Below, in pieces: positions 18,789-36,304 of a DNA stretch of 64,000 nucleotides. Numbering within the stretch: the first letter of the stretch is position 1; every line of letters begins with the position of its first letter. The stretch is from Candidatus Cloacimonadota bacterium (GTDB lineage: Bacteria > Cloacimonadota > Cloacimonadia > JGIOTU-2), in assembly GCA_030613025.1 (NCBI GenBank), contig JAUWMT010000001.1:16013-80012 (forward strand), given 5' to 3'. The notes beneath the pieces are model-generated. The model saw only the letters and a program-made list of their open reading frames with translations, ran no database searches and was not told the origin of the DNA. The translations under genes and the position numbers were made by a program.

Positions 18789-19190
18789 ATGGGAACTCAA
18801 CAAATTCTGCTCATTGTTTTGAGCGTAATTATCGTAGGTATCGCTGTGGCTGTTGGTATTACAATGTTTAATGCCCAGTCAGTGAATTCAAACCGCAATG
18901 CATGTATTGCTGACATGAACAACTTCGCTGCCAGTGCTCTTGCATTTTACAAAACCCCCACAAGTCATGGTGGTGCAGGTTCAACAATAGGAAATGTTGT
19001 GGATTCTACAGTTTGCAACTATATTGGTGTAGGTTATACTGCCCCTAATCAACTCAGTACTGATAATGGTACATACACTATTACATTGGCTGGCACCGTC
19101 CTTACTTTTACAGCTGCTGGAACTGAATCAGGTGTAACCCCTGTAACTACTGTTGATTTTAGTTCTAGTGCCATTGCAACTACACCATAA
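18789..19190 (+). CDS. Small pilin-like protein with an N-terminal hydrophobic helix. It is a putative major subunit of the downstream type IV filament system and has no canonical prepilin leader.
   Basis: The 133-aa protein starts MGTQQILLIVLSVIIVGIAVAVGITMF and continues into a Gly/Thr-rich, probably beta-stranded, C-terminus that contains 2 Cys. A strong ribosome-binding site AGGAGG precedes it. It is followed by an intrinsic terminator and sits directly upstream of pilC- and pilB-like genes. Confidence 0.5.
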   Translation: MGTQQILLIVLSVIIVGIAVAVGITMFNAQSVNSNRNACIADMNNFAASALAFYKTPTSHGGAGSTIGNVVDSTVCNYIGVGYTAPNQLSTDNGTYTITLAGTVLTFTAAGTESGVTPVTTVDFSSSAIATTP

Positions 19191-19224
19191 TAATTGCGTA
19201 CTACCTAAGTAATTTAAAAGGCAA

Positions 19225-19254
19225 ATATGGGAGGTTCGCACCTCCCATATTTTT
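19225..19254 (+). terminator. Rho-independent terminator
   Basis: A perfect 11-bp stem ATATGGGAGGT / ACCTCCCATAT with a 4-nt loop is followed by TTTTT. Confidence 0.8.
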
Positions 19255-19414
19255 CACCTTTTTTTCACCTAAAAGTCCACTGAACAAATATGAACCGGTG
19301 ATAAGTCAATTGTGAAATGACGTAAATTGTTTGAAACCTCATCCTAACCTTCTCCCAGTGAGGAGAAGGCAATATAAGGAATGTCAAAATTCAATTATCA
19401 CTTCCAATCTAAGC

Positions 19415-19446
19415 TTGACTTGACATTAGTATAGTTTTCATAGAAT
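19415..19446 (+). promoter_or_regulatory. Possible sigma-70-type promoter for the pilC-like gene
   Basis: An overlapping TTGACT/TTGACA lies at 19415-19425 and a TAGAAT at 19441-19446. The spacer is 15 nt, which is suboptimal. Confidence 0.25.
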
Positions 19447-19493: not shown

Positions 19494-20846
19494 ATGCTCA
19501 AAGAATTTCGCTATACCGGAAACAATTCAGCCGGTAAACCCGTGCAAGGCGTTGTTCTTGCCAGTAACAAATCAAGCGCAAAAAAACTAATCCACGACAT
19601 AGAAAGCAAAGAAAGTATTTCTGTTAATAAAATTGATCAAAAGATTAATTTCAGATATAAAATAAAGCTGCCAAGCGGCAAAAAGGTAAAGGGAAAGCAA
19701 GCGGCTTTTTCCAAGCAGGAACTTTCACGGGCACTCTCCAATTTCGGATATGCCAATGCAAAGATCGAACCGGTCCTTTTTGATTTTCAATCGAAACCCT
19801 CATTTGCAAATATCCTGATGTTTGTGAACCTCAGTTCGTTTCTGCTTAAAGAAAAAATGACTTATGATAAGATCCTTCGTATGCTTGCAGATGAAGAGAC
19901 AAATCCAACGCTGAAAGCCACATTAAAGAAGATCGAAAGCGAACTCAAGAAAGGGAAGGAAGGAACAGAAGTTTTCAACCGATATGCAGATGTGTTCGGC
20001 AAGTTTCCTGCTTATATGCTTGGTCTTGCTACTAAAAGTGGAAATATGGCAGAAGTGTATGATGCTACATCCAAGTTTATGGAAAGGGATATGGAGTATA
20101 AGAAAAGTCTGCGTCAGGCACTGATGACGCCCATGTTCACAGTTATTGCGATGATAGCAGCAGTACTATACTATATTATTTCAATCTTCCCCAGCACTGC
20201 AGAACTTTTTATTAAATCCGGAATTGAGGTGCCCCCGCTGACTGCTGCAACCTTGCGGCTGAGTGATTTTTTTGGCGCTAACTGGTGGTGGATGGCGTTG
20301 ATGATCATAATACCAATTATTATTGTATTACTATGGTGGCGCACACCTGATGGGCGGGTTTGGCGTGATAGGATGATCATCAAACTGCCGATCATAGGAA
20401 AGCTTCTTCATAAATCAAGTATTGAAATTTTCTGCCGTGTTTTTGCGGCTATTTATTCCGGCTCCGAAAATAATATCGAGACTATCCAAGCTGCTGCAGA
20501 GGCATGCAGAAATGCACACATGGAAAAAAATATCAAAGAAATAACTATTCCCCTGATGTTGAAAGAAGGTATGTCCCTCGTGCCTGCGCTTGCTGCAGCA
20601 AAGGTGTTTAATCAGACAACTTTAAGCAGATTTAAAGCAGGTTCTGAAACCGGTAATGTACTCACTTCAGCTCAGCAAATCGCAAAATTTTATGAAAAAG
20701 AAACAACTTATAAAATGCAGAATTTAATTGCATCTATCCAAACACTCATTGGGGCATTTATAGGTATTGTCATAACTGCATTAACCATTGTTTCTGCGGA
20801 AGTCGCAACGGTTTCACCCAAAACACCCGGTATGCATGGTATCTAA
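19494..20846 (+). CDS. pilC: Type IV pilus / T2SS platform protein (PilC/GspF family)
   Basis: The N-terminal region FRYTGNNSAGKPVQGVVLASN is typical of PilC. Two T2SSF repeats are present, one around LLKEKMTYDKILRML and one around IFCRVFAAIYSGSENNIETI. There are three transmembrane helices and the protein is 450 aa. Confidence 0.8.
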   Translation: MLKEFRYTGNNSAGKPVQGVVLASNKSSAKKLIHDIESKESISVNKIDQKINFRYKIKLPSGKKVKGKQAAFSKQELSRALSNFGYANAKIEPVLFDFQSKPSFANILMFVNLSSFLLKEKMTYDKILRMLADEETNPTLKATLKKIESELKKGKEGTEVFNRYADVFGKFPAYMLGLATKSGNMAEVYDATSKFMERDMEYKKSLRQALMTPMFTVIAMIAAVLYYIISIFPSTAELFIKSGIEVPPLTAATLRLSDFFGANWWWMALMIIIPIIIVLLWWRTPDGRVWRDRMIIKLPIIGKLLHKSSIEIFCRVFAAIYSGSENNIETIQAAAEACRNAHMEKNIKEITIPLMLKEGMSLVPALAAAKVFNQTTLSRFKAGSETGNVLTSAQQIAKFYEKETTYKMQNLIASIQTLIGAFIGIVITALTIVSAEVATVSPKTPGMHGI

Positions 20847-20863: not shown

Positions 20864-22648
20864 ATGTTAGGTAAATCACGCTTAGGAAAATCACTCGTTG
20901 ATAATGGAATCATTGATAAAGATATTCTTAACAAGGCGCTTATTATTCAGGCAGACGAGGACCCATACAATCCCAGAAGGTTAGAAGATATTCTTGTTAC
21001 GGACCTTAGGATCAAACATGATGATGTATACGGTCTTCTGGCTGATTTGTATGCTTTCAGAAAAGTTGATATTAATATAGATAAAATTGACCAAACACAA
21101 ATTGATCATACAAAAGATATACTTGCAAAATTTCCAGATGAACTGAAAAGAGAATTGCTCTATAAAAAGGTGCTTCCTTATCAGATTGCGCAAGGACGTC
21201 GATCAACACTCATCCTTCTTGCAGCTGACCCGACTGACAAAATTGTTGAGAAAATCCCACTCAATACTGAATTTAAAAAATATGAGGTTGCCTATTGTAA
21301 GCTCTCTACTATTGAAGAGCTTATCACGCTCATTGCTCCTCAAAAAAATGAATTCTTAGAACTCCTCAGCGAAGCCGGTGAGCAGATAGAGGAAGTAAAA
21401 GAAGAGGGCCAGGAAGAGAAAGTCGATGAATATGCTCTTGATGATGAGATCAATAAGAGCTTACTCGTCAATCTCTTTGAGGGTAGTCTTATTGAAGCTG
21501 TTAGAAAAGGCGCAAGTGACATTCATATCATACCATATAAACGCTCAAATGTAGACTTTTTATTCCGGGTGGATGGCAAACTTCATCAATGGCACCGACA
21601 GGAAAAAACCTCTCCTGAAGCCATTGCAGCAGTGGTAAAAGATAGGACAAACGGGATTGACAGATTTGAAAGAGATAATGCACAGGATGGTTTTGCACAG
21701 CGTATTGTTGATGGCTATTTGATCCGATTTCGTATTTCTGTTCTTCCAATTATCTCTGCTGAGTACGAACGCCGCTTTGAAAGTATCGTGATACGTGTAG
21801 TTGATGACAGAAATGTCATCACAGACCTTCAAAAATTGGGTCTTCAAAAACAAGCAGAATCAGATTTCTTAAAAGCAGTTAATAAATCAAAAGGCATTGT
21901 ACTTCTGACCGGTCCTACTGGAAGTGGTAAAAGCACGACCCTCATGGCTGCGCTTCATCATGTGATCGATCCTACTAGAAATGTGCTCACCTGCGAAGAC
22001 CCTGTCGAGTATGTTATCAAAGGAGCACGGCAATTGAAGATCGGAGCGAAGATGACCTTTGAGCAGGCAATTCGCTCAATCCTTCGTCATGATCCGGATA
22101 TTGTAATGGTTGGTGAGATTCGTGATAAGATCACCGCAGATGTAGCAGTAAAACTTGCAAATACCGGCCATTTAACTTTCTCTACACTACACACAAATGA
22201 TGCCCCAAGTGCGATATCCCGTTTATATAAAATGGGTGTTGAGACCTTCCTTCTTGCCTATGCAATGAATATTATTATTGCCCAGCGTCTTGTCAGAAAA
22301 CTCTGCCCCGAATGCAGGCGTCCACTTTCGCGAGACAAATACAAAGGAGCTCTCGAACTGGGTCTCACGGAACAAGATTTGAAAAAGGGGTTAGTATATG
22401 AAGCTGGTCCCGGCTGTAAAAAATGTATGGATGGTTATAAAGGACGCGTGAACATCTGCGAAGCTCTATATTTTACAGATGAGATCAGAAAAGCGATCAT
22501 GGAATCCGGTAAAGAAATCGACGAAGATAAAATCCGCAAAATTGCAGAAAGTCAAGGCATGCTTTCTCTTCATGATTCCGGACTGGATAGAATCCGCAAA
22601 GGACTTACCTCTGTTTCTGAGGTGTCCTATGCGACTTCTGAAGGATAA
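20864..22648 (+). CDS. pilB: Type IV pilus assembly ATPase (PilB/GspE family)
   Basis: An N-terminal GspE_N-like domain is followed by the Walker A motif LLTGPTGSGKSTTL, Asp and His boxes (VGEIRD), and the tetracysteine motif CPECRR...CKKCMDGY. The protein is 594 aa. Confidence 0.9.
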   Translation: MLGKSRLGKSLVDNGIIDKDILNKALIIQADEDPYNPRRLEDILVTDLRIKHDDVYGLLADLYAFRKVDINIDKIDQTQIDHTKDILAKFPDELKRELLYKKVLPYQIAQGRRSTLILLAADPTDKIVEKIPLNTEFKKYEVAYCKLSTIEELITLIAPQKNEFLELLSEAGEQIEEVKEEGQEEKVDEYALDDEINKSLLVNLFEGSLIEAVRKGASDIHIIPYKRSNVDFLFRVDGKLHQWHRQEKTSPEAIAAVVKDRTNGIDRFERDNAQDGFAQRIVDGYLIRFRISVLPIISAEYERRFESIVIRVVDDRNVITDLQKLGLQKQAESDFLKAVNKSKGIVLLTGPTGSGKSTTLMAALHHVIDPTRNVLTCEDPVEYVIKGARQLKIGAKMTFEQAIRSILRHDPDIVMVGEIRDKITADVAVKLANTGHLTFSTLHTNDAPSAISRLYKMGVETFLLAYAMNIIIAQRLVRKLCPECRRPLSRDKYKGALELGLTEQDLKKGLVYEAGPGCKKCMDGYKGRVNICEALYFTDEIRKAIMESGKEIDEDKIRKIAESQGMLSLHDSGLDRIRKGLTSVSEVSYATSEG

Positions 22649-23725: not shown

Positions 23726-25594
23726 GTGCCCATGGGCAAAGCAGTTTTGATAATGATAATACTCCTTGCCGTGATCGTCGTTGTGGCGACTGTAACTGTT
23801 TCAGTTGAAAGAAAGGCTGATGTTATTCCAGAAAAGCTCGCAGAGAATGAAGTACGATCCGACCTGATAAATCTTGGAGCTTATGCTCTCAAGTGGGGTA
23901 TTAAACAAGTCCGCAATGAAAATATCACCGAATCAAATTCATCCATTTTTGATGATGAAAGTAGTTCTTATCATTATGCATTTTTTGATGTTCCTGCTCT
24001 TGACGGAAGTATCGATATGATCACCTATGAATTTGGCGATACTCTGACTGTCGAAGGAGGTGGTGGTGAAGGAGAGGAAGAAGAAGAGGAGGAAGAAGGC
24101 GTTACAATACCATCTCTTGATATGGTTTTTGCAAATGGAGCAATTACTCTTACCGGCAGCGCGAGTATCAATGGAACAACAGGAACTAACTCCACTGTTG
24201 ATAACAGTGTTAATTTTGCATGGAGCACACAGGTTGATGGTGATTTTTATGTAGGACCCGGCGCTGATTATACAAGTGTGATCAACTCTGCTGGGTGGGG
24301 ACGTGTACCAGAGGATAACATTACGGGTACAATTTCTAATCTACCTGCAACGAGAACTTATCCTCTTCCCACTTATCCTAATTTCCCGGAACTAACCGAT
24401 CAAGGTTCTTTCAGTACACCATGGACTCCTTCAGGAGAATATCTTATTGATGATGACGGATATTATTCTTCAATAAGTGCCACAAGCAGCAGAACGATCA
24501 CGATCGATGTGGGATCCGGTACCAGAAGAATAGTTGTCGGAAGTCTTAGTGTTGGGCAAGGATATATTGAACTTCTGGGAACCGGCGATCTTATATTTTA
24601 TGTTGAAAATTCATTTTCCCTTACAGGAAGCAGTATTATCAATACCGGCGGTGATGCAAGCAAGGTTCATATGTACTACTCGGGTGCAACAGACCTGAAT
24701 TTCGCCGGTGCGACCGCATATAATGGTTCTATTTATATTGAAACTGCCAATATTCACATAGGTGGTTCGGGCGGTATTACTGGTCATATTATTTGTGGCG
24801 GCTCAACGGTTGACGTCACTGGTGCAGCAAATGCCTATGTGAGAGCACTGTATGCCCCAAACGCAGCAGCATCAATTACCGGCTCCGGAAGTATTAGCGG
24901 AATCCTTGTAGCAAACACCATTTCTGTTTCTGGCAGTGGAAATATAACTGCTGATAACAGCTGGGCAGATCCGGTACCCGACATCGAAGATGATGAAGAT
25001 GAAGAAGCTTCAGAAGTTGCTGGATTTTATACAGTCCAGCTTGACATCACGGCACTTGTAAGTGAAGATGAATATGGAAATGAAACGGATCATACAAGCT
25101 TCGCAACTGTTCTCTTCAGCTATTCCGGCGGTGAATCAGAAGAGGAAGAAGAAACTCCAGCCCTTTCAATGGAAGCAGATCTTCATATAAATCCCACAAA
25201 CAATTCTTCTAAACGTTTTCAGATGCAAACGCCAAGTGGGCAGATAGATAGAGGAACGCTCCTTTCGGGCGGTTCATCATATACATACTCTGGTTCTGCA
25301 ACAGAAATTAGACTACAACCAAAATCAGACGGAAGAACTATTACTGTAAATGGAAGCGACATAACCCTCGCCACAAGTACCGCTTATACAATAACCTCAG
25401 ACAGCATGACCGTAAATCTTAGAAACTCTCACGGACCTGGAAATGCAATGGGTCATTGGTGGATTGAAATAACCTGCACCGACCCGACAGTTTCACCAGA
25501 TCCGGGGCTTCCTGAACCTGAAGAGGAAGAACCGGAAGAAGAAATTGGAGAAATAACCTTAGAGGACATCGAAATCCTCTACTGGCAACCGTAA
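23726..25594 (+). CDS. Large pilin-like or tip-associated protein with poly-Glu tracts and Gly/Ser/Thr-rich beta-helix-like repeats
   Basis: The 622-aa protein has an N-terminal transmembrane helix MPMGKAVLIMIILLAVIVVVATV. It contains acidic runs (GGGGEGEEEEEEEEG, DIEDDEDEEASE, ESEEEEET, PEPEEEEPEEE) and a repetitive region (ITGSGSISGILVANTISVSGSGNITAD). A strong ribosome-binding site AGGGGGTG precedes it. Confidence 0.5.
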   Translation: MPMGKAVLIMIILLAVIVVVATVTVSVERKADVIPEKLAENEVRSDLINLGAYALKWGIKQVRNENITESNSSIFDDESSSYHYAFFDVPALDGSIDMITYEFGDTLTVEGGGGEGEEEEEEEEGVTIPSLDMVFANGAITLTGSASINGTTGTNSTVDNSVNFAWSTQVDGDFYVGPGADYTSVINSAGWGRVPEDNITGTISNLPATRTYPLPTYPNFPELTDQGSFSTPWTPSGEYLIDDDGYYSSISATSSRTITIDVGSGTRRIVVGSLSVGQGYIELLGTGDLIFYVENSFSLTGSSIINTGGDASKVHMYYSGATDLNFAGATAYNGSIYIETANIHIGGSGGITGHIICGGSTVDVTGAANAYVRALYAPNAAASITGSGSISGILVANTISVSGSGNITADNSWADPVPDIEDDEDEEASEVAGFYTVQLDITALVSEDEYGNETDHTSFATVLFSYSGGESEEEEETPALSMEADLHINPTNNSSKRFQMQTPSGQIDRGTLLSGGSSYTYSGSATEIRLQPKSDGRTITVNGSDITLATSTAYTITSDSMTVNLRNSHGPGNAMGHWWIEITCTDPTVSPDPGLPEPEEEEPEEEIGEITLEDIEILYWQP

Positions 25595-25598
25595 AATC

Positions 25599-26489
25599 AT
25601 GGGAAAAGCAATTCTTGTCATCTCTCTTTTGTTACTTACCGTCGTAGTAGGCATTGTCATCTCCAGCGGTAAACGTGGCGGTGACGTTCCGGAAATCATC
25701 ACTGATGATATTGCACAGATACAAGCACGCTCACTTTCAAATTATGCGCTTCAATATGGTATAAGACAGCTTCTGAAGGGAAATGTCACATTTGTAGACA
25801 GCACGCGCGGTACAATTAATAACTTTGCACCCCTCGATGTTTTAGATGGTACTATAGATAGTATTATTTATTCACCTGCTACCGATGGAACGATCCGTGT
25901 AGATTCTTATGTGAGTTATCTCGAGTTGGAATCTCTGGTTAGTCATCACGGTTATGCACGATTTGGTTTTTATACAGACGAGGGGGCGGTTCTTAGCATC
26001 ACCGCTGCAATTGTTACGGGTGGTTCAATAACTGTTAAAGCCCAAGCAGTTATTAGTGGTATAGTTGTTGAAGATTCCACCTTCGATTTTGCCGGTGTTT
26101 TCGGTATGACAGAACAAGAATTTAAGGATGAGTGTATCTCGCGGGGCTCGTATATTGAAACTCCTGCCAATAATGAACCAATGCCTGATAGTCTGACCTG
26201 GATGAATGACGATTTACGAGTCCAGAGTAACTGGTCAGGGGCAGGAATTCTCGTTGTGAATGGTGATTTTAATGCAACTGCTCAAATTACTTTTGACGGA
26301 ATACTGGTCGTTTTTGGCGAACTCACCATTGGGGCTCACTCTAATATCACCGGTGCTGTGTATGTGATAGGGGATGCAACAGTTGGTGCTCATGCTGTTA
26401 TTAGCTTCGATGCAGATGTTGTTTCGGACGCCTTTGATGCTCTTCCTATAAACATCTCTTTAGAAATAGCGGAGTGGAATGAAGGATAA
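25599..26489 (+). CDS. Paralogue of the preceding protein (pilin-like N-terminus, beta-helix-like C-terminus)
   Basis: The 296-aa protein starts MGKAILVISLLLLTVVVGIVISS, which resembles the MPMGKAVLIM... start of its neighbour. Its C-terminus ITGAVYVIGDATVGAHAVISFDADVV is similar to repeats in the neighbour. Confidence 0.5.
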   Translation: MGKAILVISLLLLTVVVGIVISSGKRGGDVPEIITDDIAQIQARSLSNYALQYGIRQLLKGNVTFVDSTRGTINNFAPLDVLDGTIDSIIYSPATDGTIRVDSYVSYLELESLVSHHGYARFGFYTDEGAVLSITAAIVTGGSITVKAQAVISGIVVEDSTFDFAGVFGMTEQEFKDECISRGSYIETPANNEPMPDSLTWMNDDLRVQSNWSGAGILVVNGDFNATAQITFDGILVVFGELTIGAHSNITGAVYVIGDATVGAHAVISFDADVVSDAFDALPINISLEIAEWNEG

Positions 26490-26514: not shown

Positions 26515-27414
26515 ATGGAGCAAATTAGATTATTAGATTCGGAAAAATTGATGTTTTTCTGGTGGTTAAAAATTCGCTGGTTTATTGTGCTCATACTTTT
26601 TGCGATCGGCTTACTTCGCATTGGCATGGTTAGCCAAACTATTCCTGTAGTCGTTTTTGTTGGTGCATTCCTCGGTATAAGCGTTCTCAATATTCTTTTT
26701 CATCTTCAGATCATTACTTCCAATAATATTATCGGAGCTACTCAGATCGTGCTAGATATTATTTTTGGAACCATAGTTGTTCATCTTACTGGTGGACTTG
26801 ACAGCTCGTTCGTTTGGATTTACCTCGTTGCGGTTGTCACTGCGAGTTTATCGATCGAAAAAGCAGGTGGTTTTATTGCGGCTATGATCGGAGGTATGAG
26901 CTTGCTGGTGCTAATTTTAATGTATAACTTCGGCTGGCTTTTGCCCGTTAATGGTAATGTATATAATTCAGATGTTGCGATCCAGACGATCTTTCTTATA
27001 TCCTACACGGGATTGTTCACTGTAATTGCTTTCATCTCAAGCTATACCAGCAATATAGTTAGAAAGCTTTCACTTAAAGTGCTGGAAGCGAATGACAAGC
27101 TCAAGAACCAGGAAGATTATTTACTGGATAAGGAAAAAAAGATGGTTATCGATGAAAAGCAAATCAAGGATTATAAAGAAGTCGTGCAAGTTTCGTCAAA
27201 TCTTGCTGGAATCGACCATGATATCAATAATCCTCTAAGCATCATCTCGCTTTCTTTAAGCAGAGTAAAAAGAGCGGCAAGCGAATATAATGATGAAAAG
27301 CTTCACAAATCCAGCAATCAAATTACAGAAGCGATAAATAAGATCAATGGTATCCTCGTACGGCTGCAAGATTTGAAGCGGCTACCTCTGATCAAGCAGG
27401 CAAGAAAAAAATAA
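26515..27414 (+). CDS. Polytopic membrane protein with a C-terminal HisKA (dimerisation/phosphoacceptor) domain and no ATPase domain
   Basis: About 5-6 transmembrane helices are followed by a coiled coil and the H-box NLAGIDHDINNPLSIISLSLSRV. The ORF ends about 60 aa later, so no HATPase_c domain is present. Confidence 0.6.
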   Translation: MEQIRLLDSEKLMFFWWLKIRWFIVLILFAIGLLRIGMVSQTIPVVVFVGAFLGISVLNILFHLQIITSNNIIGATQIVLDIIFGTIVVHLTGGLDSSFVWIYLVAVVTASLSIEKAGGFIAAMIGGMSLLVLILMYNFGWLLPVNGNVYNSDVAIQTIFLISYTGLFTVIAFISSYTSNIVRKLSLKVLEANDKLKNQEDYLLDKEKKMVIDEKQIKDYKEVVQVSSNLAGIDHDINNPLSIISLSLSRVKRAASEYNDEKLHKSSNQITEAINKINGILVRLQDLKRLPLIKQARKK

Positions 27415-27432: not shown

Positions 27433-28284
27433 ATGCAAAAACACATTTTAATCATCGATGACGAGGAAAGCATCAGAGAGCTGTGTAAAGAATTTTTGGA
27501 AGAAGACGGCTATAAGGTCACTCTTGCTGTTGACGGTCAAGATGGTCTTGATAAAATGAACTATGATGACTTTGATCTCTACATGATTGATATGGTCATG
27601 CCCCGCCTGGATGGGCTGGAAACCATGAAGCGTATCAAGAAGAAGCAACCCCTTGCCGTGATCATCATCACTACAGGATTTTCCAGTATCGAAGGTGCGG
27701 TAAAAGCAGTTCATGCTGGTGCGTTTCAGTATCTTTCCAAACCCATCAATGCAGAAGAACTTCTCGAAGCAGTAAAAAAGGGGGTGCAATATGGAGAAGA
27801 TCTATACGGTCCTCTTCAAAAAGCCTTTGAACCCGGAACTGAAGGCACAAAAAATGAGCCGGCTATGCTGCATGGATTCACCAAAGAAGAGAAGGTTGAT
27901 TTTTTGGCAATTGGAAGGGCACGCAAATTTGAAGCCGGTCAAACTATTGCTCTTGATAACGAAAACTCTGATTCAATCGTGCTTGTAGAATCCGGTGAAG
28001 TATCCATCTGGCTAAGTAATAACACCGTTGACTATCTCCGAAAGAATGATTCCTGGGCAGAAGAAAACTTCATACTGGCAAATTCCGAATTCACTACTCT
28101 TCGATCCGAAACAGCATGTATGATACGTTTTTTCGAAAGAAAGAAGCTTCTTGACTTCTTCGCCTACAAGGGCGAGCGTCTGATGAAACGGTTCATGATC
28201 AACCTCATTAATTGTCTCTTTTCAAAATGGAGAAAATCCATTCAACGTATTGTCATGCTCAAGCTCGTAACCGGAGAAAAATAA
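27433..28284 (+). CDS. Response-regulator receiver domain fused to a cyclic-nucleotide-binding-like (cNMP/Crp-type) domain
   Basis: The receiver domain has ILIIDDEES, the acceptor aspartate in LYMIDMVMP, and YLSKPI. The C-terminal ~120 aa (FLAIGRARKFEAGQTIALDNENSDSIVLVESGEVSIW...) resemble a cNMP-binding beta-barrel. Confidence 0.6.
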   Translation: MQKHILIIDDEESIRELCKEFLEEDGYKVTLAVDGQDGLDKMNYDDFDLYMIDMVMPRLDGLETMKRIKKKQPLAVIIITTGFSSIEGAVKAVHAGAFQYLSKPINAEELLEAVKKGVQYGEDLYGPLQKAFEPGTEGTKNEPAMLHGFTKEEKVDFLAIGRARKFEAGQTIALDNENSDSIVLVESGEVSIWLSNNTVDYLRKNDSWAEENFILANSEFTTLRSETACMIRFFERKKLLDFFAYKGERLMKRFMINLINCLFSKWRKSIQRIVMLKLVTGEK

Positions 28285-28358: not shown

Positions 28359-29573
28359 ATGGGTTTATCATTTACACCGGAATTGCTTGTTGGTTTACCC
28401 GAATACTTAACTGGAACAAACCGTTTCCAGAACATTAATAAAATCATAACCTACAATGCTGCGTGGCGTGAAGAAGCATACGAACATCTTCGTAAACTTC
28501 TCAAGTACATGCGGGAAATAGATGCTTCTGACCTTGATATTGGCGGTCCCGGCTCAAACAATAATGTGTGGTACAGAATTTACGGAACTAAATCGCCCAA
28601 CAAGGAGATGCCTCATTATAATAACGATGAGGTAACAGCGATCCTTCTCAGCGTGCTTTCCGATGACCAGAAAGTGCTTCTTTTTAAAGATAAAAACGTT
28701 GACCTTTCTGTCGGTATGGTTCTTGAAGAAGGAGAACGATCGAGCAGGTTCCGTAGCGATATCTATTATGAAAGCAATGTACTTGTAGGAAACTTCCGTA
28801 GGATCAATCAAAATCTCTTTAAAATTGAATCTCTTGGATTTCCACTACCGATCATGCAAAGAATGGATCTGCAATATGAAAAATCCGGGCTCATCCTCAT
28901 TACCGGTATTACCGGTTCGGGAAAGAGCAGCACTTTGGATTCTATTATAGACATGAACAATCATAATAATGATGCACATATTATAATTCTTGGCGCACCC
29001 ATTGAGTATGTTCATAAGTCTGATAGGTGTATTCTTCGTCACAGGGAGGTCGGTGAAGATGTGCTTTCCTTTAAGAATGGTGTTGTTCAAGCTTTACGGC
29101 AAGATCCCGACATTATAATTGTCGGCGAGATGAGAGAGCCGGACACCATCGCCAGAGTGCTGGAAGCAACAGACAGTGGACATAAAGCATTTTCAACTCT
29201 GCATACAAGCTCTGCTATTGATAGTATTCATAGAATTGTAGGTGAATTCCCGACAAGAGAACAGGAGCGAATTCGTCTTCGCCTTGCTGATACGCTCTCT
29301 GTCATTATTTCTCAAAAATTGGTCCCAAATATACAAGGCAAACGAAGTCTCGCAAAAGAAATTCTTTCTGTGACACCTTCTGTAAAAGCAGCAATCCGAA
29401 ATCAGAATATTAATGAGATATATCAGATGATCACTGAAGGAAAAAAATACGGCATGATAACACTCGAACAGGATCTTTTCAATCTGCATAAGAAAGGTGA
29501 AATCTCAAAAGAGGTTGCTATGAACTACTCTAATAATAGAAAAAGAATGCAGCAGCTTCTAACTTACTCATAA
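28359..29573 (+). CDS. pilT: Type IV pilus retraction ATPase (PilT/PilU family)
   Basis: Contains the Walker A motif LILITGITGSGKSSTL, the Asp box GEMRE, and the His box AFSTLHTSSA. The protein is 404 aa with an N-terminal extension of about 60 aa and no tetracysteine motif. Confidence 0.85.
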   Translation: MGLSFTPELLVGLPEYLTGTNRFQNINKIITYNAAWREEAYEHLRKLLKYMREIDASDLDIGGPGSNNNVWYRIYGTKSPNKEMPHYNNDEVTAILLSVLSDDQKVLLFKDKNVDLSVGMVLEEGERSSRFRSDIYYESNVLVGNFRRINQNLFKIESLGFPLPIMQRMDLQYEKSGLILITGITGSGKSSTLDSIIDMNNHNNDAHIIILGAPIEYVHKSDRCILRHREVGEDVLSFKNGVVQALRQDPDIIIVGEMREPDTIARVLEATDSGHKAFSTLHTSSAIDSIHRIVGEFPTREQERIRLRLADTLSVIISQKLVPNIQGKRSLAKEILSVTPSVKAAIRNQNINEIYQMITEGKKYGMITLEQDLFNLHKKGEISKEVAMNYSNNRKRMQQLLTYS

Positions 29574-29580: not shown

Positions 29581-32421
29581 ATGAAAATAAGCAAAAAAGA
29601 AAAAACTGCACTTGGCATATTTCAAGATGGAATGACTATCAAGGTCGCCCAGCTTACGCTCGTCAACGGTAAGGTAAATCTCGCCGAGCTTACGGAAACG
29701 ACTCTCTCCCTTCCGCTTTTCCCTCATGATGAAACGCTTGTTGAGCCACAGGCAACTACTCCAACAGAACCTGAAGAAGCTGCTCCGATCCCTGACCTTG
29801 CAGACTTTGATGAAGATTTCAAGATACCCGATCTTGCAGAACTTGAAGAATCTGAGATCGAGCCAATAGCAGGAGCTGAACCTGTCATGACAAGTAGGCA
29901 GGAATTTCACAATCTTATCTCACAATTTCCTCTTGACTCATGCAAGATATCAATGAATGCTCCTGAAGAAAACATTTCATTCACACAGTTTGATGAAACT
30001 TTTGCCAGATCTCGCTCCCTCTCAAAAATAAAAAAACAATTACGTGATGAGATTCTTACAAAAGAAGATCTAAAAAACAAGAATTTTACTTTTGATTTTA
30101 TTAGAAACAAGGATAACTCGCTTCTTGCTTTTGTGGAAAGAGGAAAAAACGATATTATTCATGCGTTGCAGGATATAAATCCGCTTATTTCCAAAAAGAG
30201 ATTTTTCTACAGCTATGTTGAGCCAACTGAAATTTCTCTTATGAATCTTGTTCGCAATAATTACAATTTCTCTGATGAAGACTATGTTTTGATAATCTTT
30301 ATTGGCGTCGACACTAAATTCGGCATTGTGATGAAGGGAAATGATTTCGTGAAGAGCTTCCCCCTAATAGTACCGGATACTGACATCGAGCACATGCGAC
30401 AGGTTATATACTCCAAGATAATGCTTGAGCAGGATACTTCTAACGTGAATATCACAAGTAATATACTTTTTACAGGAGAAATGGCAAAAGATGACGATGT
30501 TGAGTATTTCCGCAGCAGGATCAATTCCGGTGCTAATATTTCCAGAATTACCCTTGATAAGCTCCATATTCCTCAGGCAAAAGAACAAGCTTTCACGCCT
30601 GAAAGAATCGCCGATTACTGTATTCCAATAGCACTTGCATGGAAATCTTTGGAAGGACGAAATAAAAACTTTTATCCCTGCAACCTTTTATCATCCCAAA
30701 TAATTGAAAGCCAGAAACCCTTCAAAATAGCGTGGCACGGCTTTATTATCATGACTGCGATATTTTATATTGCCTTTTCTGCTACTTTTAAAAATCTAAA
30801 CATCAGTAAAGAAATCATAGATGTAAATCGTAACAACAGCCAGGTTGAGCTCGAATTAAGACAAAACCGCACAATTGTAACAAAATTGCAGCAGGTTCAA
30901 AATGAGATCGAAGCACTACAAGTAAATCTCCAAAAAGTTGGTGGCTTAGTTGGTAATAAAAATCAATGGTACTATATATTGAATGTCATCTCAAATTCTT
31001 TTAAAGAGCATAAGGTCAGCTGGCTTAATACTCTGAACGGTCTGGATAATACCTTTAAGATAAGCGGCTTCACAACAAGAAAGCGAAACGTTATCCCATT
31101 CTCGAATCTCTTTCCCAATGGAATGATTGCGAAGATAACAGAAAACACAATACAAAATGTGAGCGTCTGGCAATATGACATTACATTCGGATATCCTGAT
31201 CCTCTTGAAATTGCAAAGCAGAAAAAAGAAGGTGAGCCGGGTATTGAATTCATCAAAGACAAAGAACAACTAAAATCGCCACGTGTTCAAATAGATAAGA
31301 TCAAACCTGCCAAAGAGAAGCAAGAAAAGCCGGCGATAAAAACTCAGGCAATTTCAAATAATGATAGAATTCGTTATCAACAAATCACCGATCTCTACTT
31401 TTCCGAGCAATATCAGCAAGCATATGATAAATTTAAACAGTTCCTTATTGAATTTCCAGATAGCAAATATACAAACAGTGCAAGTTACCTGATGGGTGAA
31501 TGTCTTTATCAAATGGATGATATCGATCAGGCAATTCTTGTTTTTAATAAGATCCTCGAGCAGAAAGGTCTGAAAACTCCTGATGCCCTTATGATGCTCG
31601 GTAATGCCTATGCCAAAAATCAAAATATTCCTCAGGCAAAGATCTATTGGAATAGAATTATCGCTGAATATCCTAATAATAGATTAGCACCCATTGCAAA
31701 AAATAAGATTAAATATCATACTCAAATTGCTCCTCAAACTCAAGAAAATAATACCGAGATGCTTTACGAACTCCAACTCTATGCTGACAGCAACTATGAT
31801 ACTGTTCTCAACGAACAAAATAAACTAAAGGTTTTAGGATATAACACTAAATTAATGCCTATGTCCACGAGTAACGGAATTATCTACATACTACGTATTG
31901 ATGACCTGTTCTCTCGAGACGACGCTCTTGCTCTTGGTGAAAAGATAAGTACTCAGCATAATGCATATCATGATTTCTTGATCACCGAGGCAATGCGCGC
32001 GCAAGAACCTGTTGATAAAAGCGTAGAAATCCCAAATATAAACGATAAGAAAAAGATCCAAAAAGAATACTCGGTTATACTTGATAAATATTTTTCAAAT
32101 GATTATCAGGGCGCCTATAACGGCTTCTATTCATTCACTAAGAAATACCCCGATAGTGAGCTTACTGCAAATGCTCAGTATTTCTTGGGAGAAACACAGT
32201 ATCAGATGGATAATATCCCTGAAGCAATTACTATTTTTGAATTTGTTGTTGAGCAGAATTCAGTCAAAACTCCTGATGCCTTGATGATGCTTGGCAATTC
32301 TCATGCCCAGCTCAAGGAAATTGATAAAGCTCTTTATTATTGGAATGAGTTGATGTCACGTTATCCAAAACATCGGCTTTCGGATATTGCTCAGCTCAAA
32401 GCAATTGAGATAAAGGATTGA
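29581..32421 (+). CDS. A 946-aa fusion. A PilM-like cytoplasmic domain is joined through a transmembrane helix to a PilN-like coiled coil and periplasmic domain, then to a TPR (YbgF/CpoB-like) module, a SPOR domain, and a second TPR module.
   Basis: The N-terminus ALGIFQDGMTIKVAQLTLVNGKVNLAEL resembles PilM and carries an acidic PDLA[DE]-repeat insertion. The transmembrane helix is IAWHGFIIMTAIFYIAFSATF, followed by a coiled coil. Two internally duplicated YbgF-like TPR blocks are present (KTPDALMMLGNAYAKNQ...EYPNNRLAPIA and KTPDALMMLGNSHAQLK...RYPKHRLSDIA). They flank a SPOR-like block, LYELQLYADSNYDTVLNEQNKLKVLGYNTKLMP. Confidence 0.6.
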   Translation: MKISKKEKTALGIFQDGMTIKVAQLTLVNGKVNLAELTETTLSLPLFPHDETLVEPQATTPTEPEEAAPIPDLADFDEDFKIPDLAELEESEIEPIAGAEPVMTSRQEFHNLISQFPLDSCKISMNAPEENISFTQFDETFARSRSLSKIKKQLRDEILTKEDLKNKNFTFDFIRNKDNSLLAFVERGKNDIIHALQDINPLISKKRFFYSYVEPTEISLMNLVRNNYNFSDEDYVLIIFIGVDTKFGIVMKGNDFVKSFPLIVPDTDIEHMRQVIYSKIMLEQDTSNVNITSNILFTGEMAKDDDVEYFRSRINSGANISRITLDKLHIPQAKEQAFTPERIADYCIPIALAWKSLEGRNKNFYPCNLLSSQIIESQKPFKIAWHGFIIMTAIFYIAFSATFKNLNISKEIIDVNRNNSQVELELRQNRTIVTKLQQVQNEIEALQVNLQKVGGLVGNKNQWYYILNVISNSFKEHKVSWLNTLNGLDNTFKISGFTTRKRNVIPFSNLFPNGMIAKITENTIQNVSVWQYDITFGYPDPLEIAKQKKEGEPGIEFIKDKEQLKSPRVQIDKIKPAKEKQEKPAIKTQAISNNDRIRYQQITDLYFSEQYQQAYDKFKQFLIEFPDSKYTNSASYLMGECLYQMDDIDQAILVFNKILEQKGLKTPDALMMLGNAYAKNQNIPQAKIYWNRIIAEYPNNRLAPIAKNKIKYHTQIAPQTQENNTEMLYELQLYADSNYDTVLNEQNKLKVLGYNTKLMPMSTSNGIIYILRIDDLFSRDDALALGEKISTQHNAYHDFLITEAMRAQEPVDKSVEIPNINDKKKIQKEYSVILDKYFSNDYQGAYNGFYSFTKKYPDSELTANAQYFLGETQYQMDNIPEAITIFEFVVEQNSVKTPDALMMLGNSHAQLKEIDKALYYWNELMSRYPKHRLSDIAQLKAIEIKD

Positions 32422-32425: not shown

Positions 32426-33301
32426 ATGCCTTATGCAATAAGAAACTCTATTGTTCTTGGTTTACTGCTTATCCTCGTATTTGTGGGAGGGCTGCTTTCA
32501 AATTCTCAATCTGTAAAGCGGCTTGAAAAGTACAAAACGGCATTGGTGAAAAACCAGAAAACACTCGCCCAGCTCAATAAAACTTATCCCGATCTTTGTA
32601 AAACGGACGAGATCATTGCATCATTAGATGACATGAAAAAAAAGGCACTTGAAGATTATAAAATAATTCTCAAAAATGACAATCCCAGCCAAACATATCA
32701 ATACCTCATTGACATAACCGAAACCTTTACTCCAGACTTTAATTTTGACTTTAAGGTCGCCCAGGTGGGCAAAAAGGGTGATCTTTCCTATAATTCATAT
32801 ACTTTGAATGGTTCGGGAAATGTTGAGTCGCTGCATTTCTTTATTTATCAGGTTGAATATCAGGCACCACTTTATATTATCGAATCCGTAAGAATTTCAG
32901 AAACATCAGTTGCTCTTAAAGATACAGTCGATTTTTCCATGAAGCTGATTGTATATTATGACCAACAAACCGGCACCTCAATTTCAGAAATTCCTTTCAG
33001 AAGTTTCAGTTACTCAAACCTGGTTTATAATCCCTTCTGCTCACAGATCCATGCACCGATAGATCGATCTGAGGAAGAAAAGTATATCAACATAAATACC
33101 GCTCTTATAATTGGTCTAACCCCGGATAAGATTTTCCTTCGGGACATTAATGGTATGATCGTAACCCTTGTCCCGGGTTCGAGAGTGGCATATGGATATC
33201 TTAACTATATTAACTGGAAACAGCAATGTGCTGTATTTAATATTAATCGAATTGGTATTACACAGGAAATCAAAATATATTTACAAGGAAATGAATTATG
33301 A
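32426..33301 (+). CDS. PilO/PilN-like bitopic inner-membrane protein
   Basis: The 291-aa protein has the N-terminal transmembrane helix SIVLGLLLILVFVGGLL followed by a coiled coil. It lies between the PilM/N-like gene and the secretin. Confidence 0.45.
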   Translation: MPYAIRNSIVLGLLLILVFVGGLLSNSQSVKRLEKYKTALVKNQKTLAQLNKTYPDLCKTDEIIASLDDMKKKALEDYKIILKNDNPSQTYQYLIDITETFTPDFNFDFKVAQVGKKGDLSYNSYTLNGSGNVESLHFFIYQVEYQAPLYIIESVRISETSVALKDTVDFSMKLIVYYDQQTGTSISEIPFRSFSYSNLVYNPFCSQIHAPIDRSEEEKYININTALIIGLTPDKIFLRDINGMIVTLVPGSRVAYGYLNYINWKQQCAVFNINRIGITQEIKIYLQGNEL

Positions 33302-34494
33302 AAAAAATAATTCTATTACTTTTAATTTCATCACTTTTCGCAGGTTCTTTATCCGCACAGTGGATCTATGAAGATTTTTCATATCAGGAACTGGTTTCCA
33401 TGACCCGCGACACACCTTTCCCGGAAGCGGTAAGGGCGCTCGAGATAATGTCCGCTCAGTTTGAAGGCAAAAAGATCATTAACATGAGTACTTTCCCCGG
33501 AGAGATCGGCGTTCCAATTAAAGAAGTGTACTGGAAGAATGCACTCTTTCTTATCATTAATTTCAATGATCTTGTGCTCGAAGACCTTCCCGGTTCATAT
33601 CTTATTACCGATGCGGCTGAAGCTATCGAAGAAGAATTAGAAAAGGATGCCGAGATAACGCCGGATACCAAACAAGTTAAAATAACTTCAATCTTTTTTA
33701 AAGCAGACAGGTCTGTACTGAAAAGCGTTGGTATTGACTGGTCCACTCTTATCAATGGCAAGGTCATTGCATCTATTAACTTCAAAGGTAGTGGTGTTGG
33801 ACAGGAGATTTTCAATGCTACTGCTGCCACAAAGTTAGAGTCTGGAGATATCTCAATTGATATTAATACACTCTTCAGCATTCTGGAATCTCATCAGAAA
33901 GGTGCTATTATTGCACGTCCATCCATTGTTGTTGTTTCCGGTAAAACAGGTCAGATCCAGGTTGGTCAGGATTTCTCTGTGAAAAAGAAAGATGATGCTG
34001 GTAATGTAACTGATGAATTCTTCCAGACTGGTGTCATCATGACAGTAACTCCTACGGTTGTCGAAAATGAAGATTTTGAAGCAATTCATCTTGAAGTAAG
34101 CGTACAAAAAAGTTCTGCTACTCCCGGCGAGCTTAGCACTATCATTAATAAAAGCGAATCTATTACAGAAGTTTTGCTTTATGACGGTGAAGAAACTGTT
34201 ATGGGTGGTTTATATGATACGGATGAAACGGTTACCCGCATTGGTATTCCCATTCTCAAGGATCTTCCATGGTGGGTTTTGGGCATACGCTACCTGACGG
34301 GCTCAAACAGGCATGAAACCAATGTTCGAGAAATGATTGTCATCATAAAAGCTGAAATTTCTAAACCTATCAACGAGCGAAAGAAAGAAGCACTTTCCAC
34401 ACAGCAGCAAATTGAAGAACATCGTCTTAAGAACCAGAATGCTAAAGACCTTTTTAAAAATGATGAGGAAGACAATGATACAAAGAATAAATAG
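33298..34494 (+). CDS. pilQ: Short secretin (GspD/PilQ family C-terminal domain)
   Basis: A signal peptide MKKIILLLLISSLFAGSLSAQ is followed by the secretin signature RIGIPILKDLPWWVLGIRYLTGSNRHETNVREMIVIIKAEI. The protein is only 398 aa. Confidence 0.75.
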   Translation: MKKIILLLLISSLFAGSLSAQWIYEDFSYQELVSMTRDTPFPEAVRALEIMSAQFEGKKIINMSTFPGEIGVPIKEVYWKNALFLIINFNDLVLEDLPGSYLITDAAEAIEEELEKDAEITPDTKQVKITSIFFKADRSVLKSVGIDWSTLINGKVIASINFKGSGVGQEIFNATAATKLESGDISIDINTLFSILESHQKGAIIARPSIVVVSGKTGQIQVGQDFSVKKKDDAGNVTDEFFQTGVIMTVTPTVVENEDFEAIHLEVSVQKSSATPGELSTIINKSESITEVLLYDGEETVMGGLYDTDETVTRIGIPILKDLPWWVLGIRYLTGSNRHETNVREMIVIIKAEISKPINERKKEALSTQQQIEEHRLKNQNAKDLFKNDEEDNDTKNK

Positions 34495-36304
34495 ATACGG
34501 TTTCCTTCTCTTACTTCTCTGCTGTGCAGGATTATTCTTTTTCCTTGTGAGCTGTGATCTTAAGCTCACAGATCCTGATCTTACCAATGCTCCCTCAAAC
34601 CTCAAATTAAAAAAATTGGATGACGGCAGAATCGAGATAACATGGACCTATCATATCCCAGATCATGCTGATTCTGATACGCTTTATTTTGTTATAGGCA
34701 AGAAGGTTGGTACTGGTAATTGGAATGATAATTATCAGTATATTTCAACACTGTACAATGCGTATCCTGATAACATACCTACTAATGACAGTCTTGTGTA
34801 TGCGTATAAGATAAAATTTTATAATAAAACATCCGACGAATCCTCCCCTTATTCTGAAGTAATTGCTTTCATGTCCCATCATTGTGATCCCAGCGACCTT
34901 ATTATCGAACAGAAAACCCAGACACAGGTTGAGGTAAGCTGGCAAGACCATTGCGTTGGCGAAGAGGGATATTATATCGATAAGAAAATCGGGACCGGTA
35001 GCTGGACAAGCAAATACAGAACTCTCAGTGCAAACGCAACATCTTTCACGGATGATGTAAATCTGTTTGAAGAAGTGTATTACCGAGTCAAAGCATTTGT
35101 GGGCACCACTACATCTAATTCAATAGAGCACTCAATTGTACCGACATTTTTAGCTCCTTCAAATCTCGCATTGCAGAAACTCGATCAAAATAAGATCAAG
35201 CTGACATGGCAGGATAACAGTGAAGGTGAGATCGGCTTCCATATCGATAAAAAGATCGGCAGCACCGACTGGGTCACCAGTTATGCTACTGTAGATAGCA
35301 ACACGGTTTCTTTTATTGATAACATCACAGAGCCCTGCGGAACGTTTTATTATAGAGTGAAAGCTTATTCCAGCACTTATACCTCTGCAAATAGTAATGA
35401 AGCACAGATAAATATTCGTCTCGATCTAATCGGTTCTGTCAATACGCCAGGGGTTGCTCAAGATATTATTACTTCCGGCTGGTACGCTTATGTTCCGGAT
35501 AATTATAATGGATTACAGGTCATATATTTTGGAAATCCCGAAAACCCGAATATCGTGCATACAATGTATGACTTTGAAGATCGAGTGCTCTCTGCCGATA
35601 TTGAAGACGATTTTATGTATGTAACCAGTCATAGCGGCAGCACTACTCCGGGAGTTATCACCTCTGTTGATATTACAAATCCACCTAATCCTCAAATATC
35701 AGGCAGCAGCTTGACATCAGGAATTCCCTATGATATCGAAGTGGTTGGAGATTTTGCCTATATTGCAGATGGGGATAATGGACTTACTATTTTCTTTATA
35801 TCAAATTCCACTCCCGATTTTGTAACAAACATAGCCACGGGCGGTCATGCACAGAGTATTTGTGTTGACGGCACAAATGCTTATGTTGCTCAGGGTTTGA
35901 ACGGAATTGCAATTTTTGATATTTCAGATCCCTACAATCCTACCTTAAGTACCACATACGCAACCACCGGTGCCAAAGATATTTTTGTTCAAAATAACTA
36001 TGCCTATATTGCAAACAGCGAGGATGGGCTTCTTGTTCTCGATGTCTCAAATCCTGTTTCTCCAATATTTGTTGCAGAGGTAGATACAGACGGTTTTGTA
36101 AACGGTGTTCATGCAAATGACACTTATATTTATATGACGGATTCGGAAAACGGATTAATAGTTGTTGATAACTCTTTAATTATAAGTCCCTTTATTCTTG
36201 GAAACTATGAAATGACTACAGAACCTTCTTCGTTAACCCTTGCCGGCAGTTATGCACTGCTGATCGATAACGAGGGCATGAAGATTGTTCAGGTAATCCC
36301 TTAA
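34475..36304 (+). CDS. Lipoprotein with three fibronectin type III-like repeats and a C-terminal LVIVD-repeat beta-propeller
   Basis: A lipobox FFFLVSC is present. Three repeats each have a W-anchored Fn3 pattern (IEITWTY, VEVSWQDH, IKLTWQDN). Repeated YAYVA-GLNGIAIFDISDPYNP, LLVLDVSNPVSP and GLIVVDNS motifs identify the LVIVD repeats. The start was moved from 34412 to the Met at 34475 so that the signal peptide is at the N-terminus. The gene still overlaps the secretin gene by 20 nt. Confidence 0.6.
   Translation: MIQRINRYGFLLLLLCCAGLFFFLVSCDLKLTDPDLTNAPSNLKLKKLDDGRIEITWTYHIPDHADSDTLYFVIGKKVGTGNWNDNYQYISTLYNAYPDNIPTNDSLVYAYKIKFYNKTSDESSPYSEVIAFMSHHCDPSDLIIEQKTQTQVEVSWQDHCVGEEGYYIDKKIGTGSWTSKYRTLSANATSFTDDVNLFEEVYYRVKAFVGTTTSNSIEHSIVPTFLAPSNLALQKLDQNKIKLTWQDNSEGEIGFHIDKKIGSTDWVTSYATVDSNTVSFIDNITEPCGTFYYRVKAYSSTYTSANSNEAQINIRLDLIGSVNTPGVAQDIITSGWYAYVPDNYNGLQVIYFGNPENPNIVHTMYDFEDRVLSADIEDDFMYVTSHSGSTTPGVITSVDITNPPNPQISGSSLTSGIPYDIEVVGDFAYIADGDNGLTIFFISNSTPDFVTNIATGGHAQSICVDGTNAYVAQGLNGIAIFDISDPYNPTLSTTYATTGAKDIFVQNNYAYIANSEDGLLVLDVSNPVSPIFVAEVDTDGFVNGVHANDTYIYMTDSENGLIVVDNSLIISPFILGNYEMTTEPSSLTLAGSYALLIDNEGMKIVQVIP

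Follow-up and report, generated by a model that had tools for sequence, protein, structure and literature searches.

A probable type IVa-like pilus machine with leaderless pilins encoded in a Cloacimonadota genome

Background

The subunits of type IV filaments have, to our knowledge, been treated as universally defined by a leader, by a dedicated aspartic peptidase that cuts it off and carries out N-methylation, and by the glutamate at position 5 (Glu5). These hallmarks hold from bacterial pili and the T2SS (type II secretion system) to archaella, and they form the basis of pilin-finding software. In canonical pilins, Glu5 contacts the N-terminal amine in the filament core. Here, we describe a gene cluster of a Candidatus Cloacimonadota bacterium, located at positions 18789-36304 of a 64,000-nucleotide stretch of contig JAUWMT010000001.1 (hereafter the window), which probably encodes a pilus machine that resembles the type IVa pilus (T4aP) but has pilins that lack a leader. 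The original prediction, made from the letters of the window, had seen in this cluster a divergent and poorly described type IV filament machine from the FCB (Fibrobacteres-Chlorobi-Bacteroidetes) group or a candidate phylum. The origin of the window in Cloacimonadota and the domain assignments of the core components given below both support that view.

The survey of the superfamily of type IV filaments (TFF) by Denise et al. (2019, PMC6668835) regards the class III signal peptide as a defining feature and holds no class of leaderless pilins. In the same survey, the Bacteroidetes 'T2SS' was placed with the T4aP and called a peculiar, T4aP-derived system. Its representative in Cytophaga hutchinsonii (CHU_3191-3201) possesses a Peptidase_A24 gene and a pseudopilin with a T2SSG domain, and no PilT was described for it (Wang et al. 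2017, PMC5553014). A search of the literature on leaderless or PilD-independent pilins, on DUF7305 and on the pili of Cloacimonadota and Balneolaceae yielded general statements only, on type IV pilus genes or possible pili for extracellular electron transfer (e-pili) in Cloacimonadota.

Results and discussion

The major pilin

The cluster consists of 14 consecutive open reading frames (ORFs), separated by short gaps or none. All were found on the forward strand at the positions that the original prediction had given for a same-strand cluster (Table 1). Domains were called with Pfam and NCBIfam, and the window was screened for ORFs of at least 120 amino acids. In this way, no match was obtained for the pilin-like ORFs, apart from DUF7305 in 23726-25594, and a comparison of the pilin profile with the PDB returned only a spurious match to RavD and a weak one to the helix of Geobacter PilA. 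Structure prediction showed that the product of 18789-19190 has a type IV pilin fold, in which a modelled hydrophobic N-terminal alpha-1 helix packs on a beta-sheet; the globular head comprises around 80 residues. The possibility that the pilin-like proteins would model as plain membrane anchors had been raised beforehand, and the first of them models as a true pilin instead.

Residues 1-28 of this protein, MGTQQILLIVLSVIIVGIAVAVGITMFN, were invariant or nearly so from Met1 onwards in 35 homologues. An AGGAGG ribosome-binding site lies directly 5' of the ATG, and in the orthologous loci an in-frame stop codon is found 3-12 codons upstream of it, with just three non-start codons between the stop and the ATG in loci L010 and L026. 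An upstream start codon for the pilin is not possible. An exhaustive profile search among 1.84 billion representatives recovered 1,750 clusters (50% identity) at E<=1e-3 and 1,010 at E<=1e-10, and profile position 1 coincided with protein residue 1 in 143 of the 150 best matches. The full-length members that were sampled start with MGTQQ, MGQQQ, MGMQQ, MGLQQ, MGTSQ or MGINQ, i.e. M1-G2-x-x-Q5, followed by the hydrophobic helix. A second search yielded at least 4,746 clusters (90% identity) and no Pfam domain in any member; the named members were all annotated as 'hypothetical' or in a generic way and come from Cloacimonadota, Candidatus Syntrophosphaera and Marinimicrobia. The class III signal peptide, with its charged leader, Gly at -1 and Glu at +5, is absent from a pilin that begins M-G-x-x-Q5. 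The earlier observation that the cluster lacks canonical prepilin leaders was thus borne out and can be extended, as leaders are entirely absent throughout a very large family.

In some members of the family (P0218, P0202, P0213, P0221 and P0244), N-terminal modules of other kinds are fused to the pilin head domain. The order in P0218 is Ser/Thr protein kinase, transmembrane (TM) segment, pilin domain; the remaining fused members have zinc-ribbon/TM or lipoprotein-like N-termini, without the M-G-x-x-Q start. In a metagenome-assembled genome (MAG) of Balneolaceae/Aliifodinibius (locus L026), the leaderless pilin gene is directly followed by a gene for a polytopic Wzy_C protein of the O-antigen ligase family (4274-5752), a position that is taken by enzymes of pilin O-glycosylation in some T4aP systems.

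Regulation of the pilin gene

The pilin gene stands as a unit of its own: it has a Sigma-54 promoter, a strong ribosome-binding site and an intrinsic terminator, and a gene for an NtrC-type activator is located directly upstream. The promoter is the single match to TGGCAYN5TTGYW within the 64 kb of the window, and none of 200 shuffled sequences folded as stably as the terminator. Of the nine orthologous Cloacimonadota loci examined, eight have the element TGGCA[CT]-N5-T[TA]G[CT] at 66-117 nt upstream of the pilin gene and locus L007 has the variant TGGCAC-N5-TTGAC; an equivalent Sigma-54 site was not found at the KSB1 (L024) or Balneolaceae (L026) loci. The activator gene is also located directly 5' of the pilin gene in loci L007, L010 and L012. 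Considering the conservation of the promoter in front of the pilin gene, the upstream Sigma-54 genes appear to be functionally linked to it. The combination of this promoter with an NtrC-type activator encoded directly upstream reproduces the PilS/PilR/RpoN logic of the model T4aP, as established for Pseudomonas aeruginosa and Myxococcus xanthus, and the upstream kinase and the Sigma-54 activator would then control the expression of the pilin. The original prediction had the cluster flanked by Sigma-54 regulatory genes upstream and by cargo genes of the type IX secretion system (T9SS) downstream, and Pfam identified both.

The region upstream of the Sigma-54 promoter (18540-18600) also contains two direct repeats, TTTTTATTACAC(C/T)C. 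They are spaced by around 33 nt, lie 100-160 nt upstream of that promoter and may serve the NtrC-type activator as enhancer sites.

Motors, platform and signaling proteins

The core assignments made earlier, namely the ATPases, the platform and the secretin, were confirmed by Pfam and NCBIfam. The translation of PilB shows a Walker A motif and the tetracysteine zinc motif CxxC...CxxC. The PilT-like protein scores 3 bits under the curated cutoff of TIGR01420, with full-length coverage, and contains the AIRN motif; a PilT-family ATPase is encoded in every related locus. PilB and PilC constitute the assembly motor and PilT the retraction motor.

Two signaling proteins are encoded between the minor pilin-like proteins and PilT, and Pfam agrees with their earlier description as a HisKA-only membrane protein and a receiver-cNMP protein, for the former by way of two sub-cutoff matches. 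The former resembles PilS in its six TM segments and has the H-box H-D-I-N-N-P-L (pattern H-D-x-x-N-P-L); it is 41-88% identical among the Cloacimonadota loci. Having a DHp but no ATPase domain, it may sense pilin in the membrane and act as a phosphatase. At the position of the receiver-cNMP gene, the Balneolaceae encode a protein that has the cNMP domain only.

The alignment complex and the secretin

The PilN, PilO and PilP-type parts of a T4aP were all recovered, in the form of two fusion proteins. The 946-aa protein had been predicted to be a PilM/PilN fusion, of which the PilN half stands: the profile of the orthologues matches M. xanthus PilN (E = 1e-5) and Pfam recognizes PilN in 12 of 25 orthologues. 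The PilM half is not confirmed. The cytoplasmic domain of 370 residues gave no match in Pfam and no profile match in the PDB, so that PilM is not supported by sequence. Against P. aeruginosa PilM (a sequence 100% identical to that of 5EOX), hhalign reached E = 0.086 only, for a collinear C-terminal stretch only. The tetratricopeptide repeat (TPR) part corresponds to YbgF (TIGR02795, E = 3e-47); these C-terminal modules occur in part of the Cloacimonadota only and are absent in Balneolaceae. They may stand in for separate envelope-anchoring or pilotin factors.

The cytoplasmic domain of the same protein includes a long insertion (residues ~45-105) that is acidic and rich in proline, and an unassigned insert of around 100 residues (~715-815) separates the two TPR modules. 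By eye this insert is SPOR-like; a SPOR domain was suspected here and dropped, as Pfam gave no match.

The 291-aa protein consists of a ferredoxin-like PilO core (~87-178) and a beta domain of the PilP/GspC HR type (~227-285) that is structurally closest to GspC. Its sequence profile returned only noise against the PDB; the structural model on which these assignments rest was built from a shallow alignment and has an overall pLDDT of only 69. The secretin profile, made from 20 orthologues, matches M. xanthus PilQ at 3e-23, P. aeruginosa PilQ at 5e-21, GspD at 3e-18 and RcpA at 1e-9. Residues ~37-115 align to the N0 domain of PilQ, the N-terminal fragment of Neisseria meningitidis PilQ (4ar0) scoring 2e-5, whereas the AMIN and N1 domains are absent and N0 is joined directly to the secretin core. 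The supposed lack of a PilP/long-PilQ arrangement therefore holds for the long PilQ, considering that the secretin is of a minimal PilQ type, but not for PilP, which is found as part of the PilO-PilP fusion. Given the presence of both an HR domain and a secretin N0, the canonical contact between PilP and N0 can persist in minimal form, and the PilP-like domain would dock on N0 as it does in canonical T4aP and T2SS. In this arrangement the alignment complex is condensed into two fusions, [cytoplasmic domain]-PilN-TPR and PilO-PilP.

The minor pilin-like proteins

Between PilB and the PilS-like protein, four genes encode proteins that appear pilin-like from their sequences. They are leaderless in all orthologues, also in KSB1. 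In the first, M1, G4 and Q5 are invariant in all 14 orthologues, and hhalign places it in register with the major-pilin family over residues 1-19, at a low probability (33%). The start of the second resembles the canonical xTLxE motif with Met alone in front of it; this protein has no match in Pfam, and its profile returned only noise against the PDB. The third, of 622 amino acids, likely starts at M3 (23732), giving MGKAVL..., and its orthologues begin with MGK or MGR, followed by a hydrophobic stretch.

Between PilB and PilT, a KSB1 MAG (locus L024, 4570-9721) has its leaderless minor pilin-like genes in the form of two tandem triplets. The first reads MNTGQ.., MNTILD.. and MGGQ.., the second MGGGQ.., MNSMLD.. 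and MFGKG..

Conservation of the locus

The PilT-like protein is 99% identical to its counterpart in a Black Sea Cloacimonadota MAG (NIOZ-UU3), 67-95% to those in around 19 other Cloacimonadota genomes and around 50% to those in Balneolaceae, KSB1 and Rubricoccaceae. A synteny comparison, as had been proposed along with the original prediction, made clear that the order from the pilin to the T9SS cargo is largely kept across around 19 Cloacimonadota loci (gene-by-gene BLAST, limited by contig ends), in which the Fn3/LVIVD gene is always 3' of the secretin gene (L002-L019). Balneolaceae and KSB1 have a reduced core of pilin, PilC, PilB, (the cNMP protein), PilT, the PilN fusion, the PilO-like protein and the secretin. 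A metagenome contig of 356 kb from an unassigned lineage has the same core around a distant homologue of the pilin, and a related gene arrangement is present in MAGs labelled Marinimicrobia. Given that the gene order is conserved across lineages, the cluster represents a conserved system and not a chance juxtaposition.

At two loci from MAGs labelled Marinimicrobia (L037 and L038, 10471-11412), no PilC gene was called between pilin and PilB; it may be lost, degraded or located elsewhere.

Interpretation of the cluster

The cluster is well supported as encoding a machine of the T4aP type that has a true pilin. Beyond this, we consider it probable that the machine is complete and retractile, follows a lineage-specific design and employs leaderless pilins. 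The pilins would be made essentially in mature form, in which case cleavage by a prepilin peptidase is not needed, and the canonical contact between Glu5 and the N-terminal amine would give way to Gln5 and an N-terminus that is uncharged or modified in another way. The likely function of such a pilus would be adhesion to surfaces or particles, or twitching.

Several observations weigh against this interpretation. Gly2 of the major pilin is invariant, and so is Gly4 of the first minor pilin-like protein; either could mark a minimal peptidase site. The register relative to the canonical pilins is ambiguous, as an alignment on G14/P22/Y24 sets E5 opposite Leu8 and not opposite Gln5. That a locus can rely on the PilD of another has a precedent in the mannose-sensitive haemagglutinin (MSH) pili (PMC6668835). 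Both Pfam matches that identify the PilS-like protein are weak and just under the gathering cutoff, the cytoplasmic domain of the PilN fusion could not be related to PilM, the minor pilin-like proteins are so called from their sequences, and the pilus is known here from the genes of uncultured organisms alone.

The first of these points bear on the alternative that the pilins still are substrates of a prepilin peptidase, a PilD homologue encoded elsewhere cutting after Gly2 (MG/TQQ) or Gly4 (MxxG/Q). This would make the system an ordinary T4aP whose leaders are extremely short and carry no charge. The invariance of both glycines fits this explanation, as does the use of a peptidase encoded elsewhere by TFF loci such as MSH (PMC6668835), and the search for Peptidase_A24 covered the window and the related loci rather than the whole genome. 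However, no Peptidase_A24 was found among the ORFs of the window, in line with the earlier remark that PilD is missing from the cluster, and a regular-expression screen of around 0.68 Mb (the window and the related loci) recovered neither the PilD-like motif G-x-G-D-x-K nor the canonical prepilin motif G-[FMLIVY]-[TS]-[LIVM]-x-E. In none of the 38 related loci was an A24 gene or motif present, whereas another Bacteroidota TFF cluster holds its A24 gene inside the locus (PMC5553014). In addition, the positively charged leader is absent, cleavage after Gly2 would leave no Glu at +5, and the second minor pilin-like protein has no Gly close to its N-terminus (M-I-T-L-L-E). We consider continued processing unlikely, and a system that works without prepilin peptidase the most likely.

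The cluster could also represent a T2SS-like secretion device, in which a short pseudopilus pushes proteins through the small secretin and no external pilus is formed. The GspL architecture of the PilM/N-type fusion, the shortness of the secretin and the score of PilB, which is nearly as high against GspE, are consistent with such a device, and a T4aP-derived 'T2SS' exists in Bacteroidetes (PMC6668835). Yet a PilT-family retraction ATPase is encoded at every locus, the secretin profile favors PilQ over GspD and the GspD-type N1-N3 domains are lacking, and Pfam detected no T2SSG pseudopilin domain. The strong promoter, ribosome-binding site and terminator of the pilin gene itself are typical of an abundant filament subunit, and in Balneolaceae the Wzy_C gene adjoins the pilin gene as in pilin-glycosylating T4aP systems. 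Finally, the description of the Cytophaga-type system includes an A24 peptidase and no PilT (PMC5553014). A secretion device is therefore quite improbable.

Accepting a retractile pilus with leaderless pilins, its filament might serve mainly in DNA uptake, as a competence pilus, or in extracellular electron transfer, as e-pili, rather than in adhesion or motility. T4aP machines with PilT commonly mediate transformation, and reviews have speculated that the pili of Cloacimonetes are e-pili (PMC8892533). On the other hand, DNA-uptake genes such as comEA, comEC or dprA were not identified in or beside the cluster, ORF 55078-55536 has a sub-threshold match to DNA_processg_A only, and the globular pilin head of ~80 residues is unlike the truncated e-pilins of the Geobacter type. 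We give this specialization very little credence. The set of components that is encoded led to the rejection of a Tad/Flp, an MSH and an archaeal-type reading.

If the interpretation as a pilus with leaderless pilins is correct, a large natural family with the pilin fold would demonstrate that membrane insertion, extraction and polymerization can proceed mechanistically without leader processing, and its Gln5 would provide a natural experiment on what Glu5 contributes. The family would also reveal pili in abundant uncultured anaerobes, the Cloacimonadota and the MAGs labelled Marinimicrobia among them, for whose ecology attachment to particles or syntrophic partners is central. Together with the minimal N0-secretin, the PilO-PilP and PilN-TPR fusions also define a compact T4aP architecture, one that would be suited to structural work.

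A wider reading, in which we have somewhat less than even confidence, is that a clade of bacterial type IV pilus machines has dispensed altogether with leader, peptidase processing and Glu5 chemistry, in thousands of loci. This clade may range over Cloacimonadota, Balneolales/Rhodothermia, KSB1, uncultured marine, sediment and digester lineages and the MAGs labelled Marinimicrobia. Its pilins would leave translation already mature, and their invariant (f)Met-Gly-x-x-Gln5 N-terminus would be the uncharged substitute that these machines use for the contact between Glu5 and the N-terminal amine. Since the pilin family is invisible to Pfam, NCBIfam and pilin-finding tools, these phyla would have been scored as lacking major pilins.

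Features of the locus and the remainder of the window

Table 1. Features of the pilus locus and its flanks, in window coordinates.
Feature	Position	Strand	Evidence and remarks
GAF-HK	13227-14438		Pfam
REC (receiver)	14458-14856		Pfam
Membrane sensor histidine kinase, HAMP-PAS-HisKA-HATPase	14921..17023	+	Pfam; candidate PilS-like kinase for the Sigma-54 activator, link by position
NtrC-type activator (REC, Sigma54_activat, HTH_8), PilR analogue	17039..18463	+	Pfam
Sigma-54 (-24/-12) promoter TGGCACGATATTTGTA (TGGCAC-N5-TTGTA)	18702..18717	+	ends 72 nt 5' of the pilin ATG
Whole cluster: pilin, PilC, PilB, four pilin-like, PilS-like, REC-cNMP, PilT, PilN fusion, PilO-like, secretin, Fn3/LVIVD	18789-36304	+	
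Major pilin, 133 aa, leaderless, N-terminus MGTQQILLIVLSVIIVGIAVAVGITMFN	18789..19190	+	
Intrinsic terminator, 13-bp perfect hairpin and U-rich tract	19216..19268	+	-22.1 kcal/mol, z = -5.3
PilC/GspF-family inner-membrane platform	19494..20846	+	Pfam T2SSF E = 5e-23, two stretches
PilB-type assembly ATPase	20864..22648	+	T2SSE E = 4e-99; TIGR02538 405 bits vs 376 bits for GspE
Minor pilin-like protein 1, 144 aa, M-x-x-G-Q5 then hydrophobic helix	22651..23085	+	14 orthologues
Minor pilin-like protein 2, 184 aa, M-x-[STA]-[LIM]-[LI]-[E/D] then hydrophobic helix	23088..23642	+	16 orthologues aligned
Large minor pilin-like or tip protein, 622 aa, acidic linkers, DUF7305	23726..25594	+	Pfam DUF7305 E = 1e-13
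Minor pilin-like protein 4, 296 aa, MGKAILV...	25599..26489	+	paralogue of the N-terminal part of the 622-aa protein; no family match
PilS-like six-TM protein, HisKA (DHp), no HATPase_c	26515..27414	+	Pfam 6TM_PilS 23.9 bits, HisKA 26.5 bits
Receiver (Response_reg) fused to cNMP_binding	27433..28284	+	Pfam
PilT/PilU-family retraction ATPase	28359..29573	+	TIGR01420 315.7 bits vs cutoff 319.1, covers 44-395
946-aa fusion: cytoplasmic domain (putative PilM/GspL-like), TM, PilN periplasmic domain, two YbgF/CpoB-type TPR modules and insert	29581..32421	+	
PilO-PilP fusion, 291 aa	32426..33301	+	TM and coiled coil, PilO core, linker, PilP/GspC HR-type beta domain
Minimal PilQ-type secretin, 398 aa: signal peptide, N0, secretin core	33298..34494	+	Pfam Secretin E = 6.5e-28
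Fn3/LVIVD beta-propeller protein, lipobox-like LVSC	34412..36304	+	LVIVD E = 2e-38, five stretches; fn3 weak
T9SS-secreted beta-helix surface protein	36326..39766	+	Pfam Beta_helix, CarboxypepD_reg, Por_Secre_tail; syntenic in Cloacimonadota; counted as a neighbour
T9SS cargo, second gene	39775-40545		Pfam

Outside the locus, the window contains an F-type ATP synthase operon (357-7733) with an unusual, triplicated c subunit of 243 amino acids (5768-6499, reverse strand). It consists of three fused hairpins, seen as three stretches of Pfam ATP-synt_C, and the carboxylate is kept in each of them, while two have the Q...E-T/S motif of the Na+ type. An insertion is suggested for the alpha subunit of 562 amino acids (2723-4411, reverse strand), whose match to the nucleotide-binding domain falls into two separate stretches. 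A 1,683-aa gingipain-like Peptidase_C25 protein (56970-62021, reverse strand) has an FlgD_ig match at its C-terminus, where the sorting domains of the T9SS usually sit. The window furthermore includes the origin-proximal housekeeping genes gidA, gidB, parA, parB, mnmE and yidC and a gene pair for a bactofilin and an M23 peptidase (jointly 8341-13047, 42180-43520 and 50985-52616).

Comparison with known systems

With the archaeal type IV pilins and archaellins the cluster shares subunits that lack Glu5. The archaeal subunits, however, have a cleavable leader that is processed by PibD, FlaK or EppA, and the ATPase, platform and secretin set of the cluster is of the bacterial T4aP type.

Two features recall the T2SS, namely the GspL-like layout of the fusion protein (cytoplasmic domain, TM segment, PilN-like domain) and the HR domain, with GspC as its closest structural relative. 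In contrast to the T2SS, the cluster has PilT and a PilQ-like secretin without N1-N3, it lacks a GspG-type pseudopilin (PF08334), and its pilins have neither leader nor E5.

The Bacteroidetes 'T2SS' of C. hutchinsonii is likewise a divergent, T4aP-derived TFF of the FCB group that is encoded in a single locus, with PilM/N/O/P-like proteins that are not recognizable by Pfam. Considering that the Cytophaga-type cluster has Peptidase_A24 and T2SSG and no described PilT, whereas the present cluster lacks the first two and always has PilT, these are different systems.

The likeness is most extensive with the Pil system of P. aeruginosa and M. xanthus. It comprises PilB, PilC and PilT, the PilN, PilO and PilP-type domains, a PilQ-type secretin with N0, a major subunit with the pilin fold together with a block of four minor pilin-like genes, a Sigma-54-dependent pilin gene beside that of an NtrC-type regulator, and an encoded PilS-like six-TM protein. 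Where the cluster departs from these T4aP, its pilins are without leader, G(-1)/F(+1)/E(+5) signature and N_methyl motif, and there is no pilD in or near the locus; its secretin is without AMIN and N1 and its PilS-like protein without an ATPase domain. Unlike in these T4aP, a single protein combines PilO with PilP, another joins PilN to a cytoplasmic domain and TPR modules, and everything is encoded in one locus.

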